In this document: positions 1 through 9,026 of the stretch, in pieces
Position numbering within the stretch: position 1 is the stretch's first letter
Layout: each line of letters begins with the position of its first letter
NCBI GenBank assembly: GCA_000002435.2
Contig: AACB03000012.1
Source: Giardia intestinalis
Lineage: Eukaryota
Strand: one strand, 5' to 3'
Length of the DNA stretch: 9,026 nt
Notes under the pieces: generated by a model
What the model saw: only the letters and a program-made list of their open reading frames with translations
What the model was told of the DNA's origin: nothing
Database searches by the model: none
Translations under genes and position numbers: made by a program

Positions 1-1146
1 TGTCTGTTTGATTAATTCGTTAGCAGAGGTAGACACATGTGGAGCAGGTTGGTGAGGAGCCAGTTCCTTGAGAGTCTGTTCTGGTCGAGGTTGTTCGCAA
101 GAAGGAGTTCTAGACCTCTTAGAAGAGTGCATAACTAAAGAGTCCGATGGGCTATGGGTTTCCTCATAGGTCTCCTCCGGCTGCTCCGCCAGTAAGTCGC
201 ACGTTTCAAATTCGTCTAGCTGACCTTCGCAACCAGGCTCATCCGGAAAATCTAACGGTTTATGTGCCCGTTTAATCGTGGATCGCGACAGGGTAATAAC
301 GTGAGCTGGACTGGCGGGCTGAGGACAGAAACCTTTCGAGGAATCGCTAGATAGTAAACCCGGCTCTCTGGCAGTAGCGAATGTCATAGTGACCTCTGGA
401 ACCATAGTGCTCTGAGCTGAATTTGGTCTGGAGAGCTGAGTAGTAGAAGATACTGCTGGTGTTTCAGAGATGTCCATCAAGCTGCTGAGTACTGTTGTAT
501 GGTCCTGGAGTGGTTTATCAAACGACTTGCTTTCTAAATTAATAGTATTAATAGTTGATGGGTCAGCAAGAAAGTTTCGATGATGTGGATTTTCAACCAC
601 GTGAGAATCAGCTGCAAATGTCAAAATCATCTGAGTTACAGTTACATCTTCGTCTAGTGTACTTTCAGTAGAGCTTCTTGATTGGACAGAAGAGCTTTCC
701 TTAGAACCTAAAGTAGTAGAGGATAGAACTTGAGGATGCTCACCAGCGTTTTCCTGGGCAATTGATGAATACTGATCTTGAGAATTTTGTTTAGGCACTT
801 CATTGGAAGAATGCTTGATTAAAAATGAAGACTCGTGAGTTAAGGGCCTAGATAACGAATTTTCTTCTGCCTTATTTTGTGAATGCATAAAGTTCTCAAT
901 CAAAATATCGTAAGAAGTATCTCCATTACCATAAACATCTGTATTTAGCAAAGTATCCTCACACACCGTGTCTTCTGCCAAGGGCTTCTTTTGGTTTGTT
1001 CTCGATGCATCGGTAGGTTTTAATTTCCGTAAAGGTGGAAGGGATGATAAGGAATACGTTAGAACAAGCTCACTAACAGGTACATCTTCATTATCACAAG
1101 CTGGAGTAAGTACTCCCTCATGTATATCGTTAACTACAAGAAGGTC
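1..1146 (-). CDS. Non-repetitive, S/T/E/D-rich segment of a large repetitive protein. It looks disordered and matches no domain I recognise. It lies C-terminal to the repeat domain, and the frame continues past position 1 with no stop in the window.
   Basis: The minus-strand frame using plus triplets 1-3, 4-6 and onward contains no TTA, CTA or TCA triplet across all 382 codons from 1146 to 1, so no stop. I checked this twice by hand. The same phase on the plus strand is loaded with TAA, TAG and TGA. The translation, read 5' to 3' on the minus strand, begins DLLVVNDIHEGVLTPACDNEDVPVSELVLTYSLSSPSTLRKLKPTDASRTNQKKPLAEDTVCEDTLLNTDVYGNGDTSYDILIENFMHSQNKAEENSLSRPLTHESSFLIKHSSNEVPKQNSQDQYSSIAQENAGEHPQVLSSTTLGSKESSSVQSRSSTESTLDEDVTVTQMILTFAADSHVVENPHHRNFLADPSTINTINLESKSFDKPLQDHTTVLSSLMDISETPAVSSTTQLSRPNSAQSTMVPEVTMTFATAREPGLLSSDSSKGFCPQPASPAHVITLSRSTIKRAHKPLDFPDEPGCEGQLDEFETCDLLAEQPEETYEETHSPSDSLVMHSSKRSRTPSCEQPRPEQTLKELAPHQPAPHVSTSANELIKQT. 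The chance of a stop-free run this long arising by accident is about 1e-8. Confidence 0.7.
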
Positions 1147-4100
1147 TTCGACGGGCTCCGCGGGCTCTGCAAGGCGTGCCTCCTCGGGCTCCTCAACGGG
1201 CGCTTCAGGTTCTTCGACGGGCTCCGCGGGGTCTGCAAGGCGTGCCTCCTCGGGCTCCTCAACGGGCGCTTCAGGTTCTTCGACGGGCTCCGCGGGGTCT
1301 GCAAGGCGTGCCTCCTCGGGCTCCTCAACGGGCGCTTCAGGTTCTTCGACGGGCTCCGCGGGGTCTGCAAGGCGTGCCTCCTCGGGCTCCTCAACGGGCG
1401 CTTCAGGTTCTTCGACGGGCTCCGCGGGGTCTGCAAGGCGTGCCTCCTCGGGCTCCTCAACGGGCGCTTCAGGTTCTTCGACGGGCGCCTCTTGCTGCTC
1501 GGGTTCTTCGACGGGCTCCGCGGGCTCTGCAAGGCGTGCCTCCTCGGGCTCCTCAACGGGCGCTTCAGGTTCTTCGACGGGCTCCGCGGGCTCTGCAAGG
1601 CGTGCCTCCTCGGGCTCCTCAACGGGCGCTTCAGGTTCTTCGACGGGCTCCGCGGGGTCTGCAAGGCGTGCCTCCTCGGGCTCCTCAACGGGCGCTTCAG
1701 GTTCTTCGACGGGCGCCTCTTGCTGCTCGGGTTCTTCGACGGGCTCCGCGGGGTCTGCAAGGCGTGCCTCCTCGGGCTCCTCAACGGGCGCTTCAGGTTC
1801 TTCGACGGGCGCCTCTTGCTGCTCGGGTTCTTCGACGGGCTCCGCGGGGTCTGCAAGGCGTGCCTCCTCGGGCTCCTCAACGGGCGCTTCAGGTTCTTCG
1901 ACGGGCTCCGCGGGGTCTGCAAGGCGTGCCTCCTCGGGCTCCTCAACGGGCGCTTCAGGTTCTTCGACGGGCTCCGCGGGGTCTGCAAGGCGTGCCTCCT
2001 CGGGCTCCTCAACGGGCGCTTCAGGTTCTTCGACGGGCTCCGCGGGCTCTGCAAGGCGTGCCTCCTCGGGCTCCTCAACGGGCGCTTCAGGTTCTTCGAC
2101 GGGCTCCGCGGGGTCTGCAAGGCGTGCCTCCTCGGGCTCCTCAACGGGCGCTTCAGGTTCTTCGACGGGCTCCGCGGGGTCTGCAAGGCGTGCCTCCTCG
2201 GGCTCCTCAACGGGCGCTTCAGGTTCTTCGACGGGCTCCGCGGGGTCTGCAAGGCGTGCCTCCTCGGGCTCCTCAACGGGCGCTTCAGGTTCTTCGACGG
2301 GCTCCGCGGGCTCTGCAAGGCGTGCCTCCTCGGGCTCCTCAACGGGCGCTTCAGGTTCTTCGACGGGCTCCGCGGGCTCTGCAAGGCGTGCCTCCTCGGG
2401 CTCCTCAACGGGCGCTTCAGGTTCTTCGACGGGCTCCGCGGGCTCTGCAAGGCGTGCCTCCTCGGGCTCCTCAACGGGCGCTTCAGGTTCTTCGACGGGC
2501 TCCGCGGGCTCTGCAAGGCGTGCCTCCTCGGGCTCCTCAACGGGCGCTTCAGGTTCTTCGACGGGCTCCGCGGGTCTGCAAGGCGTGCCTCCTCGGGCTC
2601 CTCAACGGGCGCTTCAGGTTCTTCGACGGGCGCCTCTTGCTGCTCGGGTTCTTCGACGGGCTCCGCGGGCTCTGCAAGGCGTGCCTCCTCGGGCTCCTCA
2701 ACGGGCGCTTCAGGTTCTTCGACGGGCTCCGCGGGCTCTGCAAGGCGTGCCTCCTCGGGCTCCTCAACGGGCGCTTCAGGTTCTTCGACGGGCGCCTCTT
2801 GCTGCTCGGGTTCTTCGACGGGCTCCGCGGGTCTGCAAGGCGTGCCTCCTCGGGCTCCTCAACGGGCGCTTCAGGTTCTTCGACGGGCTCCGCGGGGTCT
2901 GCAAGGCGTGCCTCCTCGGGCTCCTCAACGGGCGCTTCAGGTTCTTCGACGGGCTCTGCAAGGCGTGCCTCCTCGGGCTCCTCAACGGGCGCTTCAGGTT
3001 CTTCGACGGGCTCCGCGGGCTCTGCAAGGCGTGCCTCCTCGGGCTCCTCAACGGGCGCTTCAGGTTCTTCGACGGGCTCCGCGGGCTCTGCAAGGCGTGC
3101 CTCCTCGGGCTCCTCAACGGGCGCTTCAGGTTCTTCGACGGGCTCCGCGGGCTCTGCAAGGCGTGCCTCCTCGGGCTCCTCAACGGGCGCTTCAGGTTCT
3201 TCGACGGGCGCCTCTTGCTGCTCGGGTTCTTCGACGGGCTCCGCGGGGTCTGCAAGGCGTGCCTCCTCGGGCTCCTCAACGGGCGCTTCAGGTTCTTCGA
3301 CGGGCTCCGCGGGGTCTGCAAGGCGTGCCTCCTCGGGCTCCTCAACGGGCGCTTCAGGTTCTTCGACGGGCTCCGCGGGGTCTGCAAGGCGTGCCTCCTC
3401 GGGCTCCTCAACGGGCGCTTCAGGTTCTTCGACGGGCTCCGCGGGGTCTGCAAGGCGTGCCTCCTCGGGCTCCTCAACGGGCGCTTCAGGTTCTTCGACG
3501 GGCTCTGCAAGGCGTGCCTCCTCGGGCTCCTCAACGGGCGCTTCAGGTTCTTCGACGGGCTCCGCGGGCTCTGCAAGGCGTGCCTCCTCGGGCTCCTCAA
3601 CGGGCGCTTCAGGTTCTTCGACGGGCGCCTCTTGCTGCTCGGGTTCTTCGACGGGCTCCGCGGGCTCTGCAAGGCGTGCCTCCTCGGGCTCCTCAACGGG
3701 CGCTTCAGGTTCTTCGACGGGCGCCTCTTGCTGCTCGGGTTCTTCGACGGGCTCCGCGGGGTCTGCAAGGCGTGCCTCCTCGGGCTCCTCAACGGGCGCT
3801 TCAGGTTCTTCGACGGGCTCCGCGGGCTCTGCAAGGCGTGCCTCCTCGGGCTCCTCAACGGGCGCTTCAGGTTCTTCGACGGGCGCCTCTTGCTGCTCGG
3901 GTTCTTCGACGGGCTCCGCGGGCTCTGCAAGGCGTGCCTCCTCGGGCTCCTCAACGGGCGCTTCAGGTTCTTCGACGGGCTCCGCGGGGTCTGCAAGGCG
4001 TGCCTCCTCGGGCTCCTCAACGGGCGCTTCAGGTTCTTCGACGGGCGCCTCTTGCTGCTCGGGTTCTTCGACGGGCTCCGCGGGGTCTGCAAGGCGTGCC

Positions 4101-7100
4101 TCCTCGGGCTCCTCAACGGGCGCTTCAGGTTCTTCGACGGGCTCCGCGGGCTCTGCAAGGCGTGCCTCCTCGGGCTCCTCAACGGGCGCTTCAGGTTCTT
4201 CGACGGGCTCCGCGGGCTCTGCAAGGCGTGCCTCCTCGGGCTCCTCAACGGGCGCTTCAGGTTCTTCGACGGGCTCCGCGGGCTCTGCAAGGCGTGCCTC
4301 CTCGGGCTCCTCAACGGGCGCTTCAGGTTCTTCGACGGGCGCCTCTTGCTGCTCGGGTTCTTCGACGGGCTCCGCGGGGTCTGCAAGGCGTGCCTCCTCG
4401 GGCTCCTCAACGGGCGCTTCAGGTTCTTCGACGGGCTCCGCGGGCTCTGCAAGGCGTGCCTCCTCGGGCTCCTCAACGGGCGCTTCAGGTTCTTCGACGG
4501 GCTCCGCGGGCTCTGCAAGGCGTGCCTCCTCGGGCTCCTCAACGGGCGCTTCAGGTTCTTCGACGGGCTCTGCAAGGCGTGCCTCCTCGGGCTCCTCAAC
4601 GGGCGCTTCAGGTTCTTCGACGGGCTCCGCGGGCTCTGCAAGGCGTGCCTCCTCGGGCTCCTCAACGGGCGCTTCAGGTTCTTCGACGGGCTCTGCAAGG
4701 CGTGCCTCCTCGGGCTCCTCAACGGGCGCTTCAGGTTCTTCGACGGGCTCCGCGGGCTCTGCAAGGCGTGCCTCCTCGGGCTCCTCAACGGGCGCTTCAG
4801 GTTCTTCGACGGGCTCTGCAAGGCGTGCCTCCTCGGGCTCCTCAACGGGCGCTTCAGGTTCTTCGACGGGCTCTGCAAGGCGTGCCTCCTCGGGCTCCTC
4901 AACGGGCGCTTCAGGTTCTTCGACGGGCTCCGCGGGCTCTGCAAGGCGTGCCTCCTCGGGCTCCTCAACGGGCGCTTCAGGTTCTTCGACGGGCTCTGCA
5001 AGGCGTGCCTCCTCGGGCTCCTCAACGGGCGCTTCAGGTTCTTCGACGGGCTCCGCGGGCTCTGCAAGGCGTGCCTCCTCGGGCTCCTCAACGGGCGCTT
5101 CAGGTTCTTCGACGGGCTCTGCAAGGCGTGCCTCCTCGGGCTCCTCAACGGGCGCTTCAGGTTCTTCGACGGGCTCCGCGGGCTCTGCAAGGCGTGCCTC
5201 CTCGGGCTCCTCAACGGGCGCTTCAGGTTCTTCGACGGGCTCTGCAAGGCGTGCCTCCTCGGGCTCCTCAACGGGCGCTTCAGGTTCTTCGACGGGCTCC
5301 GCGGGCTCTGCAAGGCGTGCCTCCTCGGGCTCCTCAACGGGCGCTTCAGGTTCTTCGACGGGCTCCGCGGGCTCTGCAAGGCGTGCCTCCTCGGGCTCCT
5401 CAACGGGCGCTTCAGGTTCTTCGACGGGCTCCGCGGGCTCTGCAAGGCGTGCCTCCTCGGGCTCCTCAACGGGCGCTTCAGGTTCTTCGACGGGCTCCGC
5501 GGGGTCTGCAAGGCGTGCCTCCTCGGGCTCCTCAACGGGCGCTTCAGGTTCTTCGACGGGCGCCTCTTGCTGCTCGGGTTCTTCGACGGGCTCCGCGGGG
5601 TCTGCAAGGCGTGCCTCCTCGGGCTCCTCAACGGGCGCTTCAGGTTCTTCGACGGGCTCCGCGGGGTCTGCAAGGCGTGCCTCCTCGGGCTCCTCAACGG
5701 GCGCTTCAGGTTCTTCGACGGGCTCCGCGGGGTCTGCAAGGCGTGCCTCCTCGGGCTCCTCAACGGGCGCTTCAGGTTCTTCGACGGGCGCCTCTTGCTG
5801 CTCGGGTTCTTCGACGGGCTCCGCGGGCTCTGCAAGGCGTGCCTCCTCGGGCTCCTCAACGGGCGCTTCAGGTTCTTCGACGGGCTCCGCGGGCTCTGCA
5901 AGGCGTGCCTCCTCGGGCTCCTCAACGGGCGCTTCAGGTTCTTCGACGGGCGCCTCTTGCTGCTCGGGTTCTTCGACGGGCTCCGCGGGCTCTGCAAGGC
6001 GTGCCTCCTCGGGCTCCTCAACGGGCGCTTCAGGTTCTTCGACGGGCTCCGCGGGGTCTGCAAGGCGTGCCTCCTCGGGCTCCTCAACGGGCGCTTCAGG
6101 TTCTTCGACGGGCGCCTCTTGCTGCTCGGGTTCTTCGACGGGCTCCGCGGGGTCTGCAAGGCGTGCCTCCTCGGGCTCCTCAACGGGCGCTTCAGGTTCT
6201 TCGACGGGCGCCTCTTGCTGCTCGGGTTCTTCGACGGGCTCCGCGGGCTCTGCAAGGCGTGCCTCCTCGGGCTCCTCAACGGGCGCTTCAGGTTCTTCGA
6301 CGGGCTCCGCGGGCTCTGCAAGGCGTGCCTCCTCGGGCTCCTCAACGGGCGCTTCAGGTTCTTCGACGGGCTCCGCGGGGTCTGCAAGGCGTGCCTCCTC
6401 GGGCTCCTCAACGGGCGCTTCAGGTTCTTCGACGGGCTCCGCGGGCTCTGCAAGGCGTGCCTCCTCGGGCTCCTCAACGGGCGCTTCAGGTTCTTCGACG
6501 GGCTCCGCGGGGTCTGCAAGGCGTGCCTCCTCGGGCTCCTCAACGGGCGCTTCAGGTTCTTCGACGGGCGCCTCTTGCTGCTCGGGTTCTTCGACGGGCT
6601 CCGCGGGCTCTGCAAGGCGTGCCTCCTCGGGCTCCTCAACGGGCGCTTCAGGTTCTTCGACGGGCTCCGCGGGGTCTGCAAGGCGTGCCTCCTCGGGCTC
6701 CTCAACGGGCGCTTCAGGTTCTTCGACGGGCTCCGCGGGGTCTGCAAGGCGTGCCTCCTCGGGCTCCTCAACGGGCGCTTCAGGTTCTTCGACGGGCTCC
6801 GCGGGGTCTGCAAGGCGTGCCTCCTCGGGCTCCTCAACGGGCGCTTCAGGTTCTTCGACGGGCGCCTCTTGCTGCTCGGGTTCTTCGACGGGCTCCGCGG
6901 GCTCTGCAAGGCGTGCCTCCTCGGGCTCCTCAACGGGCGCTTCAGGTTCTTCGACGGGCTCCGCGGGCTCTGCAAGGCGTGCCTCCTCGGGCTCCTCAAC
7001 GGGCGCTTCAGGTTCTTCGACGGGCTCCGCGGGGTCTGCAAGGCGTGCCTCCTCGGGCTCCTCAACGGGCGCTTCAGGTTCTTCGACGGGCTCCGCGGGG

Positions 7101-9026
7101 TCTGCAAGGCGTGCCTCCTCGGGCTCCTCAACGGGCGCTTCAGGTTCTTCGACGGGCTCCGCGGGGTCTGCAAGGCGTGCCTCCTCGGGCTCCTCAACGG
7201 GCGCTTCAGGTTCTTCGACGGGCGCCTCTTGCTGCTCGGGTTCTTCGACGGGCTCCGCGGGCTCTGCAAGGCGTGCCTCCTCGGGCTCCTCAACGGGCGC
7301 TTCAGGTTCTTCGACGGGCTCCGCGGGCTCTGCAAGGCGTGCCTCCTCGGGCTCCTCAACGGGCGCTTCAGGTTCTTCGACGGGCGCCTCTTGCTGCTCG
7401 GGTTCTTCGACGGGCTCCGCGGGGTCTGCAAGGCGTGCCTCCTCGGGCTCCTCAACGGGCGCTTCAGGTTCTTCGACGGGCGCCTCTTGCTGCTCGGGTT
7501 CTTCGACGGGCTCCGCGGGGTCTGCAAGGCGTGCCTCCTCGGGCTCCTCAACGGGCGCTTCAGGTTCTTCGACGGGCGCCTCTTGCTGCTCGGGTTCTTC
7601 GACGGGCTCCGCGGGGTCTGCAAGGCGTGCCTCCTCGGGCTCCTCAACGGGCGCTTCAGGTTCTTCGACGGGCGCCTCTTGCTGCTCGGGTTCTTCGACG
7701 GGCTCCGCGGGGTCTGCAAGGCGTGCCTCCTCGGGCTCCTCAACGGGCGCTTCAGGTTCTTCGACGGGCGCCTCTTGCTGCTCGGGTTCTTCGACGGGCT
7801 CCGCGGGGTCTGCAAGGCGTGCCTCCTCGGGCTCCTCAACGGGCGCTTCAGGTTCTTCGACGGGCGCCTCTTGCTGCTCGGGTTCTTCGACGGGCTCCGC
7901 GGGCTCTGCAAGGCGTGCCTCCTCGGGCTCCTCAACGGGCGCTTCAGGTTCTTCGACGGGCTCCGCGGGCTCTGCAAGGCGTGCCTCCTCGGGCTCCTCA
8001 ACGGGCGCTTCAGGTTCTTCGACGGGCTCCGCGGGGTCTGCAAGGCGTGCCTCCTCGGGCTCCTCAACGGGCGCTTCAGGTTCTTCGACGGGCTCCGCGG
8101 GGTCTGCAAGGCGTGCCTCCTCGGGCTCCTCAACGGGCGCTTCAGGTTCTTCGACGGGCTCCGCGGGGTCTGCAAGGCGTGCCTCCTCGGGCTCCTCAAC
8201 GGGCGCTTCAGGTTCTTCGACGGGCGCCTCTTGCTGCTCGGGTTCTTCGACGGGCTCCGCGGGGTCTGCAAGGCGTGCCTCCTCGGGCTCCTCAACGGGC
8301 GCTTCAGGTTCTTCGACGGGCGCCTCTTGCTGCTCGGGTTCTTCGACGGGCTCCGCGGGGTCTGCAAGGCGTGCCTCCTCGGGCTCCTCAACGGGCGCTT
8401 CAGGTTCTTCGACGGGCGCCTCTTGCTGCTCGGGTTCTTCGACGGGCTCCGCGGGGTCTGCAAGGCGTGCCTCCTCGGGCTCCTCAACGGGCGCTTCAGG
8501 TTCTTCGACGGGCGCCTCTTGCTGCTCGGGTTCTTCGACGGGCTCCGCGGGGTCTGCAAGGCGTGCCTCCTCGGGCTCCTCAACGGGCGCTTCAGGTTCT
8601 TCGACGGGCGCCTCTTGCTGCTCGGGTTCTTCGACGGGCTCCGCGGGTCTGCAAGGCGTGCCTCCTCGGGCTCCTCAACGGGCGCTTCAGGTTCTTCGAC
8701 GGGCTCCGCGGGGTCTGCAAGGCGTGCCTCCTCGGGCTCCTCAACGGGCGCTTCAGGTTCTTCGACGGGCTCCGCGGGGTCTGCAAGGCGTGCCTCCTCG
8801 GGCTCCTCAACGGGCGCTTCAGGTTCTTCGACGGCGCCTCTTGCTGCTCGGGTTCTTCGACGGGCTCCGCGGGGTCTGCAAGGCGTGCCTCCTCGGGCTC
8901 CTCAACGGGCGCTTCAGGTTCTTCGACGGGCGCTCTTGCTGCTCGGTTCTTCGACGGGCTCCGCGGGTCTGCAAGGCGTGCCTCCTCGGGCTCCTCAACG
9001 GGCGCTTCAGGTTCTTCGACGGGCGC
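1147..9026 (-). CDS. Repeat domain of the same protein, read in the acidic frame: (EEPEAPVEEPEEARLA[E/D]PAEPV)n, with 32-aa units inserting EEPEQQEAPV and 19-aa units lacking AEP. It is N-terminal to the flank segment. The true start lies beyond position 9026. The frame is broken in this assembly by single-base homopolymer indels.
   Basis: The reverse complement of the unit, read in phase with the stop-free flank frame, gives codons CCT GAA GCG CCC GTT GAG GAG CCC GAG GAG GCA CGC CTT GCA GAG CCC GCG GAG CCC GTC GAA GAA, with no stop and no ATG, GTG, TTG or CTG. All unit variants differ by multiples of 3 (66, 96 and 57 bp), which is the pattern of selection on a reading frame. Frame continuity with the flank holds up to the first indel at 2572-2575. 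Beyond that point continuity requires the indels to be errors. Confidence 0.5.
2572..2575. other. Single-base deletion in a homopolymer (CGCGGGTCTG where CGCGGGGTCTG or CGCGGGCTCTG is expected). It shifts the frame.
   Basis: I compared it directly with flanking units. This is where the track ORF 1134..2540 ends and ORF 2549..2767 begins. Confidence 0.9.
2829..2832. other. Single-base deletion in a homopolymer (G4 to G3) that shifts the frame.
   Basis: GGCTCCGCGGGTCTGCAAGG at 2821-2840 compared with the canonical unit. This indel bounds the 1935-aa track ORF. Confidence 0.9.
4558..5352. repeat. Higher-order repeat block in which 57-bp and 66-bp units alternate as a 123-bp super-unit. The order is S C S C S S C S C S C S C, and every canonical unit here carries the C allele (CGCGGGCTCTG).
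   Basis: I traced the unit boundaries by hand: short units at 4558, 4681, 4804, 4861, 4984, 5107 and 5230, with canonical units between them. Only two other short units occur in the window (about 2950 and about 3501). Confidence 0.8.
7375..7950. repeat. Run of six consecutive 96-bp variant units.
   Basis: GCGCCTCTTGC recurs at exactly 96-bp spacing (7384, 7480, 7576, 7672, 7768, 7864). The first five units carry the G allele. Confidence 0.85.
8215..8693. repeat. Run of five consecutive 96-bp variant units. The last one carries the single-base deletion at 8645-8648.
   Basis: Insert motifs lie at 8224, 8320, 8416, 8512 and 8608, at 96-bp spacing. Long units dominate the high-coordinate end of the array, which is the N-terminal-proximal end of the minus-strand gene. 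Confidence 0.85.
8645..8648. other. Single-base deletion in a homopolymer (G4 to G3) that shifts the frame.
   Basis: CCGCGGGTCT at 8641-8650. This indel bounds the 1935-aa track ORF on its upstream side. Confidence 0.9.
8831..8968. other. Cluster of four more single-base homopolymer contractions: ACGGCGCC at about 8833 (G3 to G2), GGGCGCTCTTG at about 8933 (CC to C), CTCGGTTC at about 8945 (G3 to G2), and CCGCGGGTCT at about 8965 (G4 to G3).
   Basis: I compared each against the consensus unit. Five of the seven indels in the window fall in the final 200 bp, which suggests degraded base quality at a contig or read end. Confidence 0.85.

Follow-up and report, generated by a model that had tools for sequence, protein, structure and literature searches.

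Probable consensus errors in an acidic repeat array within the 'mucin-like protein' gene of Giardia intestinalis

Seven one-base deletions that break the frame of a long tandem repeat in Giardia intestinalis are best read as consensus errors of an assembly made from error-prone reads, lying inside the repeat of the gene annotated as 'mucin-like protein' (we put the probability of this reading at about 0.85). The support for it is indirect; every prediction of this reading that could be tested held. The original prediction, made from the letters of the window alone (the window being the whole stretch of DNA that was analysed, 9,026 nucleotides), had already favoured errors over a decaying pseudogene, and this choice is supported by the open reading frame (ORF) that appears on repair, by uninterrupted orthologues, by a downstream pN/pS of 0.28, by the dependence of the deletions on run length and by their clustering.

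A long acidic array inside one gene

Judging by protein identity, the window is the 'mucin-like protein' gene of G. intestinalis (sub-assemblage AI, WB-like), read on the minus strand. Residues 87-382 of its unique part were found to be 100% identical over 296 aa (E = 5e-182, exhaustive representative search) to P0001, the public 1193-aa gene model (XP_001704184.1 / KAE8302722.1), which places positions 1 to 1143 in the C-terminal half of this protein. The gene also shares its layout with its assemblage AII and E orthologues, the acidic repeat lying between an N-terminal and a C-terminal region. The main features of the window are:

1 to 1143, minus strand: unique coding sequence that adjoins the array on its downstream side; 381 codons sharing the acidic frame, open (no stop), leaving the window at its low end
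886 to 888, minus strand: internal ATG at which the public 1193-aa model starts; the open frame goes on upstream into the array
1144 to 9026, minus strand: tandem array of 139 units (66, 57 and 30 bp) with an acidic Pro/Glu-rich coding frame, leaving the window at its high end
4490 to 5350, minus strand: sub-domain of alternating C-type 66-bp and 57-bp units (from unit order)
7373 to 8626 (7373-7882 and 8147-8626), minus strand: sub-domains of alternating G-type 66-bp and 30-bp units (from unit order)

Units were obtained by splitting the array (1144-9026) at TTCTTCGAC. There were 50 units of 66 bp with GGGGTCTGC and 43 with GGGCTCTGC (boundary unit included), these two main types differing at one G/C position only; a further 30 units were of 30 bp and nine of 57 bp, the last unit was cut off at 15 bp, and the six deviant units carried all seven deletions. 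Every one of the 132 intact full-length units had a length divisible by 3 (66, 57 or 30 bp). The minus-strand frame of the unit reads PVEEPEAPVEEPEEARLA[D/E]PAE, with a 30-bp variant (PVEEPEQQEA) and a 57-bp variant that does without AEP, and the GC content of the array was 0.69 against 0.38-0.49 in the flank. As a tandem repeat the array is very long (at least 7.9 kb), in frame, acidic and rich in Pro and Glu, and it has been homogenised recently. The 139 or more units in the window (7.9 kb) compare with about 5-6 implied by the reference gene model and about 4 by the short-read AII contigs.

The unique 888 bp showed no difference from three Illumina-derived contigs (L001-L003), the AII contigs aligned to the window with 0 gaps across 1159 bp, the array-to-flank junction (…PVEDLLVVNDIHEG…) is common to the window and the AII contigs, and the ORF downstream of the array is intact over 1279 codons. 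In the acidic frame, DLLVVNDIHEGVLTPACDNEDVPVSELVLTYSLSSLPPLR is the peptide predicted for the part that precedes the annotated Met and follows the array. The gene is one uninterrupted ORF in assemblage AII (P0010, 2178 aa, from an Illumina MEGAHIT contig) and in assemblage E (P0011, 2207 aa). Downstream of the array, a protein-guided alignment, with an in-frame 3-bp indel present, gave 22 synonymous and 20 nonsynonymous changes (pN/pS 0.28, P = 6e-5), indicating that this region is under purifying selection. A Logan contig (L006) has the N-terminal part of the gene and ends before the array.

'Mucin-like' is an annotation label only. Pfam gave no match for the unique part, the repeat, P0010 or P0011, and homology searches that used the unique 382 aa or a repeat peptide across a frameshift had no hits outside the exhaustive representative search that identified P0001. 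An exact scan of bacterial and archaeal genomes, viral contigs and JGI metagenome contigs with a 54-base piece of the repeat unit gave 0 matches, the sequence being eukaryotic, and Rfam and tRNA scans of the window found no RNA genes. An AlphaFold single-sequence model of the N-terminal 451 aa had a pLDDT of 38, too poor for a fold search.

Seven deletions in short G/C runs

The original prediction had placed seven one-base deletions in the array, and all seven coordinates proved exact. It had also claimed that no deviation was an insertion, which agrees with our count of 7 deletions, 0 insertions and 0 private substitutions in 139 units. The deletions (no strand assigned; a slash marks the missing base) are:

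2572 to 2574: deletion 1, 65-bp unit, CGCGGG/TCTGC (G4 to G3, or C of GGGC lost); 6454 bp from the window end
2829 to 2831: deletion 2, 65-bp unit, CGCGGG/TCTGC as in deletion 1; 6197 bp from the end
8645 to 8647: deletion 3, 65-bp unit, CGCGGG/TCTGC; 381 bp from the end
8833 to 8834: deletion 4, 29-bp unit, GACGGG to GACGG (G3 to G2), GACGG/CGCC; 193 bp from the end
8933 to 8933: deletion 5, 28-bp unit, GCGCC to GCGC (CC to C), GCGC/TCTT; 93 bp from the end
8945 to 8946: deletion 6, 28-bp unit of deletion 5, CTCGGG to CTCGG (G3 to G2), CTCGG/TTC; 81 bp from the end
8965 to 8967: deletion 7, 65-bp unit, CGCGGG/TCTGC; 61 bp from the end

No difference exists among the four 65-bp units, which are marked by the junction CTCCGCGGGTCTGCAAGG and by CGCGGGTCTGC; further sequences diagnostic of deletions are GACGGCGCCTC, GGGCGCTCTTG, GCTCGGTTC, CGACGGCGCCTCT, GGGCGCTCTTGC and GCTCGGTTCTT. 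In all four units the missing base is exactly the G/C position by which the two types of 66-bp unit are told apart. All seven deletions can be read as contractions of a G or C run, as had been claimed, although for these four units this holds only if the parent run is taken as G4. The ambiguity between GGGC and GGGG had been seen at a single site, which proved too narrow since it affects all four 65-bp units.

At each deletion, when moving along the minus strand, the acidic frame passes into the basic frame and the basic frame into a stop-containing frame with two stops per unit; this frame walk, described earlier, was reproduced. The trio at 8965, 8945 and 8933 restores the frame locally, and when the seven bases were put back a single ORF of 3011 codons ran without a stop through the whole window.

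Contraction was more frequent in longer runs: it was seen in 4 of 54 G4 runs (7.4%), in 2 of 430 G3 runs (0.47%), in 1 of 661 G/C 2-mers (0.15%) and in 0 of 627 A/T 2-mers. Under uniform placement in the 7883-bp array, and with all tests being post hoc, the probability of finding all seven deletions in G/C runs of at least 2 is 7e-4, and that of finding at least four of seven in G4 runs, which make up 2.7% of bases, is 2e-5. The deletions also pile up near the window end. Five had been placed within the last 200 bp; four are found there (P = 1.4e-5, again uniform placement and post hoc), and it is only within the last 381 bp that the count reaches five, with 8645 lying at that distance (P = 6e-6 for five within the last 400 bp, on the same terms). 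The error rate of the array did not differ significantly from that of the unique flank, where about 1 error was expected and 0 were seen. CpG methylation context was considered as a trigger of the errors and dropped: all G runs of at least 3 in the unit begin at a CpG, so that this context cannot discriminate.

How could such errors arise and persist? Homopolymer errors of long-read or 454 assemblies are typically indels confined to homopolymer runs and strongly biased in one direction, towards deletion in PacBio or nanopore consensus. The source reads would be PacBio CLR or early nanopore, possibly 454, that under-call short G/C runs; to the candidates named earlier (nanopore, 454 or Ion Torrent reads) PacBio CLR has to be added. 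In unique sequence such errors would be removed through coverage or short-read polishing; in a 7.9-kb array they would stay because short reads cannot be placed among near-identical units. Long-read coverage anchored in the unique flank would thin with distance into the array, which would explain why five of the seven errors lie in the last 381 bp, and base 9026 is presumably a contig end. The site that was hit four times is at once the unit's longest homopolymer and the single column at which the main unit types differ (G or C). Reads lying one unit out of register would disagree at this column and a gap could win the consensus there; the site may fail as a polymorphic column between unit types, and not only as the longest homopolymer.

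Published observations are in line with this reading. Homopolymer-error frameshifts truncating full-length genes were reported for the PacBio WB Giardia assembly, in which a correction needed the agreement of 50% or more of no fewer than 10 Illumina reads, and small Canu contigs under 33 kb were repeat-enriched (PMC7000408). In four out of six Giardia read sets, deleted bases outnumbered inserted ones in the nanopore reads (PMC7048089), and homopolymer errors inside repeats outlast short-read polishing (PMC8812927).

Some observations count against errors. Runs of 2-4 bases are short for the classic homopolymer error, and the WB annotation, which is Illumina-corrected, also has a 65-bp-type frameshift, so that at least one such unit could be genuine in WB. 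Replication slippage in vivo likewise gives length-dependent deletion in short runs, and the similar error rates of array and flank also count on this side.

Mixed registers, genuine frameshifts and decoded shifts

The deletions might instead be artefacts of a mis-registered or collapsed alignment of unit types, or of alleles of the tetraploid genome, in which the gap wins at the G/C column and the low-coverage tail comes close to a single noisy read; we regard this as possible yet clearly less probable. Four of the seven deletions remove exactly the sole base that distinguishes the 66-bp unit types from each other, those at 2572 and 2829 are located in a stretch where units of the C type adjoin units of the G type, and the error-rich tail, once repaired, repeats the unit pattern of units 119-126. 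When, within the AII lineage, the 454 DH contig was compared with an Illumina contig 99.94% identical to it, the only indel in 13.6 kb was a frame-breaking extra base in the 454 contig (G plus CCCC), which sits at the recurrent site of the 65-bp units, is absent from the Illumina contig and forms the opposite chimera at the same column; this comparison speaks for the consensus-error reading as a whole, too. However, the deletions at 8833, 8933 and 8945 fall at columns that are invariant among units, and those at 8645 and 8965 fall within a purely G-type stretch. Mixing of registers would, besides, be a sub-mechanism of the consensus-error explanation rather than a true alternative to it.

Another idea, which we consider improbable, is that some 65-bp units are genuine and reflect a recent split of the WB-type gene by slippage at G4, the mutant unit being spread by unequal exchange, with a very young pseudogene or two expressed products as the result. 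The WB reference protein KAE8302723.1 (P0005) ends in ...ARLADP followed by RSPSKNLKRPL...SKTFL and a stop, which is a 65-bp-type (C4-to-C3) frameshift that was kept after Illumina-based correction, and the gene appears in public models as two pieces of 932 and 1193 aa. The four identical copies are what one would expect from one copied mutation, and the downstream ORF would still be intact if the event were very recent. Yet the frameshifted unit is placed differently in the two sequences: it is penultimate in the reference model, while the penultimate unit of the window is an intact G4 unit and its nearest 65-bp unit lies 22 units into the array. The four units have different neighbours, therefore no duplicated block carries them. 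Genuine units would also leave unexplained the other three deletions and the pile-up at the window end, no substitutions or insertions accompany them, and the downstream pN/pS speaks against them as well. The reference correction rule (at least 50%, single alternative) could moreover fail where reads split between an added G and an added C. The hallmarks of a decaying pseudogene (pN/pS near 1, stops, mixed mutations) were not found, leaving aside a case only a few generations old.

Less probable still is that the frame is truly broken in AI Giardia by slippage at a G4 tract, of which the array has about 50 copies. If 65-bp units were genuine, the N-terminal product would have a variable acidic or basic tail and the C-terminal half would be lost or separately expressed; this would amount to a frame switch embedded in a repeat, in the giant disordered protein of a protist that is tetraploid, and alleles or nuclei might differ in it.

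That the shifts are decoded, by programmed ribosomal frameshifting or by a switch resembling phase variation, is effectively refuted: such shifts do lie in short runs and nothing beyond that speaks for decoding, while no X_XXY_YYZ heptamer exists anywhere on the array coding strand, the sites have three different sequence contexts, an uncorrected shift leads to the basic frame and then to the one with two stops per unit, and the orthologues are in frame and need none. The slippery heptamer conserved in relatives that characterises programmed -1 ribosomal frameshifting is thus missing; the original prediction had called this mechanism unlikely. Phase-variable contingency loci have a long simple tract, typically of 7 or more bases, whose length varies in the population and turns an ORF on or off; the runs of 2-4 bases in the array are far shorter.

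Consequences for annotation and comparison with known systems

Taken as consensus errors, the indels are almost certainly an ordinary assembly artefact without importance as biology, and their practical value lies in curation. In WB, a single gene of 4719 codons or more very probably encodes the 'mucin-like protein', and its acidic repeat spans no less than 7.9 kb; the repaired protein would have at least 4719 aa, against the 932 and 1193 aa annotated. The gene would thus be mis-assembled and split in public annotations, and proteomics, knock-outs, localisation and comparative genomics based on current models would be misled. The locus also illustrates a failure mode, in which 454 and long-read assemblies break at the column that differs between unit types and that is, in this case, the longest homopolymer as well.

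The gene corresponds to XP_001704184.1 / KAE8302722.1 plus KAE8302723.1 in WB, DHA2_153816 in DH and the P15 orthologue. With a young unitary pseudogene the window shares frame-breaking one-base deletions in short runs and an intact downstream ORF; it differs in having no substitutions or insertions, in deletions whose placement follows the window end, in purifying selection downstream and in a frameshift position that is not reproducible between assemblies. With residual homopolymer errors of long-read or 454 assemblies it shares indels in one direction only, all seven being single-base deletions in G/C runs (although four could be the loss of a lone C), a rate that rises with run length, confinement to a repeat where short reads cannot be placed, enrichment toward the window end that lies deepest in the array and a gene broken into several ORFs. 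It differs from them in that its runs are short (2-4 bases) and in that its recurrent site is also a polymorphic unit column, to which mixing of registers may contribute.

Units and reading frames of the repeat array

Unique sequence in the window is joined to one tandem array, whose units were delimited by splitting at TTCTTCGAC:

1-1143, unique sequence, GC 0.38-0.49
1144-9026, single tandem array, GC 0.69, exiting the high end of the window
66-bp unit with GGGGTCTGC, 50 copies
66-bp unit with GGGCTCTGC, 43 copies, boundary unit included
30-bp unit, 30 copies
57-bp unit, 9 copies

The array contains 139 units, including these four exact sequence classes, six deviant units and a last unit that is cut off. 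The common unit lengths are all multiples of three, and the G/C difference that separates the two 66-bp classes (G-type, GGGG; C-type, GGGC) is that of an Asp/Glu codon. On the minus strand, the acidic frame translates as PVEEPEAPVEEPEEARLA[D/E]PAE, the basic frame is stop-free (RSPRRHALQ[T/S]PRSPSKNLKRPL) and the third frame has two stops in each unit. Since the plus strand has zero stop codons in all three frames over the whole array (1132-9026) and the basic minus-strand frame is open, mechanical ORF lists are misleading here; such a listing called wrong-frame ORFs of up to 1935 aa.

Unit order along the array is non-random, with sub-domains of higher-order periodicity. At 4490-5350 the alternation is between C-type 66-bp and 57-bp units, at 7373-7882 and 8147-8626 it is between G-type 66-bp and 30-bp units, and the last eight units, once repaired (GGGqGqGq), show the pattern of units 119-126 again. 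When all units in window 1144-9026 were compared with those of assemblage AII contigs (Illumina, L004:12440-12720; 454, DH isolate, L005:1-240), the WB-type 66-bp and 57-bp units all carried GAACCTGAAGCG and the AII 66-bp units all carried GAACCCGAAGCG, a pattern that points to concerted evolution of the array units.

Seven single-base deletions

Seven one-base losses, carried by the six deviant units, were found exactly where the original prediction had placed them (the slash marks the missing base):

2572, 2829, 8645 and 8965, CGCGGG/TCTGC
8833, GACGG/CGCC
8933, GCGC/TCTT
8945, CTCGG/TTC

The spectrum is thus 7 deletions, 0 insertions and 0 substitutions: the claimed absence of insertions holds throughout the 7.9 kb of array, across which the units also have no private substitutions. 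Restriction of the deletions to homopolymers, as had been proposed, exceeds chance (P = 7e-4), and so do their recurrence in G4 runs (P = 2e-5) and their terminal clustering (P about 1e-5), each in a post hoc test against uniform placement. Contraction rates per run were 7.4% for G4, 0.47% for G3, 0.15% for G/C 2-mers and 0 for A/T 2-mers. Two details needed correction. Five deletions had been counted in the last 200 bp, but only four lie there, 8645 being 381 bp from the end. The ambiguity between a G4-to-G3 contraction and loss of the only C in GGGC does exist, but it affects all four 65-bp units rather than one, and the base that these units lack is the single variable column between unit types.

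The described passage from the acidic to the basic and then to the stop-containing frame was reproduced: deletions 8965, 8945 and 8933 cancel one another locally, 8833 shifts the acidic frame into the basic one and 8645 shifts this into the stop frame, where the first stop occurs at 8594.

A probable single gene with an acidic coding frame

Restoring the seven bases yields one stop-free ORF of 3011 codons over the entire window. The unique part is open over 381 codons, exits the low end of the window and is in phase with the acidic frame in the last segment of the array. An exhaustive HMMER search matched it at 100% identity across 296 residues to P0001, the 1193-aa "Mucin-like protein" of Giardia intestinalis WB C6 (XP_001704184.1 / KAE8302722.1), whose model takes as its start an internal ATG (window 888-886, minus strand) located 86 codons below the array. 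A word-indexed protein search missed P0001 despite this identity, so a negative from an indexed search is weak for such a sequence.

Four informative relatives were drawn from the cluster of P0001 and one further search. P0010 (2178 aa, from an Illumina MEGAHIT contig of assemblage AII-like Giardia) is one unbroken ORF in which a short, collapsed acidic repeat lies between an N-terminal and a C-terminal region. P0011 (2207 aa, assemblage E isolate P15) is organised likewise, and the acidic Pro/Glu unit that it carries at the corresponding place is a different one (EQPAEQPEAPIEEPVE). P0005 (KAE8302723.1, 932 aa, WB reference) consists of the N-terminal region and about four acidic units, then a frameshift (...ARLADP/RSPSKNLKRPL...SKTFL, then stop) that is a C4-to-C3 change, as in the 65-bp unit of the window, after which the basic frame runs up to the array boundary. 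P0004 (DH isolate, 454 assembly) is read in the basic frame at first and in the acidic one from HALQSP/AEPVEE on. It follows that coding runs in the acidic frame and that relatives have this gene as a single ORF.

The giant acidic repeat is real, in a Giardia gene without assigned function whose repaired form would encode at least 4719 residues. The public WB annotation cuts this gene in two, KAE8302723.1 (932 aa) and KAE8302722.1 (1193 aa), and implies about 5-6 array units versus at least 139 (7.9 kb) in the window; the WB reference array is probably collapsed. No Pfam domain was found in the encoded protein, so the "mucin-like" label reflects composition only. The N-terminal fold prediction was uninformative; in a single-sequence AlphaFold model of P0011, the sole moderately confident part is an N-terminal three-helix stretch outside the window (residues 104-214; H104-138, H140-180, H185-214; pLDDT about 74-84 over 150-210).

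Origin of the deletions

Between WB and AII, the C-terminal 1193 codons show 22 synonymous changes, 20 nonsynonymous ones and a single 3-bp indel that keeps the frame (pN/pS 0.28, binomial P 6e-5), so the part downstream of the array has been maintained as coding sequence. The unique 888 bp are identical in three Illumina-derived contigs, and no gap was found against AII contigs over 1159 bp; errors were observed only within the array, where short reads are unplaceable, the flank being too short for this contrast to reach statistical significance. Along 13.6 kb, the DH 454 contig matches the Illumina AII contig at 99.94% identity. Their alignment has one gap, GCAGAGCCCCGCGG (454) versus GCAGA-CCCCGCGG (Illumina), which falls at the window's recurrent deletion site and breaks the frame in the 454 assembly only. 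The DH contig has a 67-bp unit there (L005:190-210; counterpart L004:12640-12660), which is why the annotated partial protein DHA2_153816 starts in the wrong, basic frame.

These results support the proposed assembly-error interpretation: the indels are very probably artefacts rather than biology. That WB truly acquired a frameshift very recently keeps some probability because the Illumina-corrected reference carries one too. We nevertheless consider it quite improbable, since it leaves unexplained the terminal pile-up, the three other deletion sites, the absence of substitutions and the inconsistent unit position: the frameshifted unit is penultimate in the WB reference model, whereas in the window that place is taken by an intact G4 unit. 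Both programmed frameshifting and phase variation are effectively excluded; the coding strand has no slippery heptamer.

Two observations concern other contigs. The independent Logan contigs L001-L003, from different runs, all begin at window 888 (minus strand), the ATG of the 1193-aa model, a point 258 bp below the array upstream of which the frame is still open. Trimming, a heterozygous site or a graph junction could lie behind this exact shared start. In L006:5261-5545 (Logan, SRR17450159), the unique N-terminal region is frameshifted (…DAPIVNL/FSSKGRGVARD…, P0006), which suggests that another data set also has an assembly or read-quality problem.

Nanopore hybrid assemblies exist for WB and another AI isolate (PMC7048089, PMC11169602), and deleted bases outnumbered inserted ones in four of six read sets (PMC7048089). 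For the PacBio WB reference, its authors described homopolymer errors whose frameshifts cut full-length genes short; these were corrected only where one alternative was backed by 50% or more of a minimum of 10 Illumina reads. Unmapped reads were assembled separately with Canu, and leftover non-chromosomal contigs were all <33 kb and repeat-enriched (PMC7000408). A 9026-bp window ending inside an array would fit a small repeat-rich contig of a long-read assembly. Such a contig may have its anchor in the unique C-terminal flank, from which it would reach about 7.9 kb into the array, with anchored-read coverage declining with distance, consensus quality falling toward base 9026 and G/C runs being under-called. 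The G4 run would fail most, being both the longest run in the unit and the sole column where out-of-register reads differ (G/C). If reads divided there between +G and +C, the 50% polishing rule could fail, which would explain the reference frameshift at the same site. According to the Polypolish authors, wrong homopolymer lengths are the most frequent type of residual error, and in repeats they often outlast short-read polishing (PMC8812927). The value of this analysis is that of a curation note on a gene that the reference annotation shows collapsed and in two pieces.
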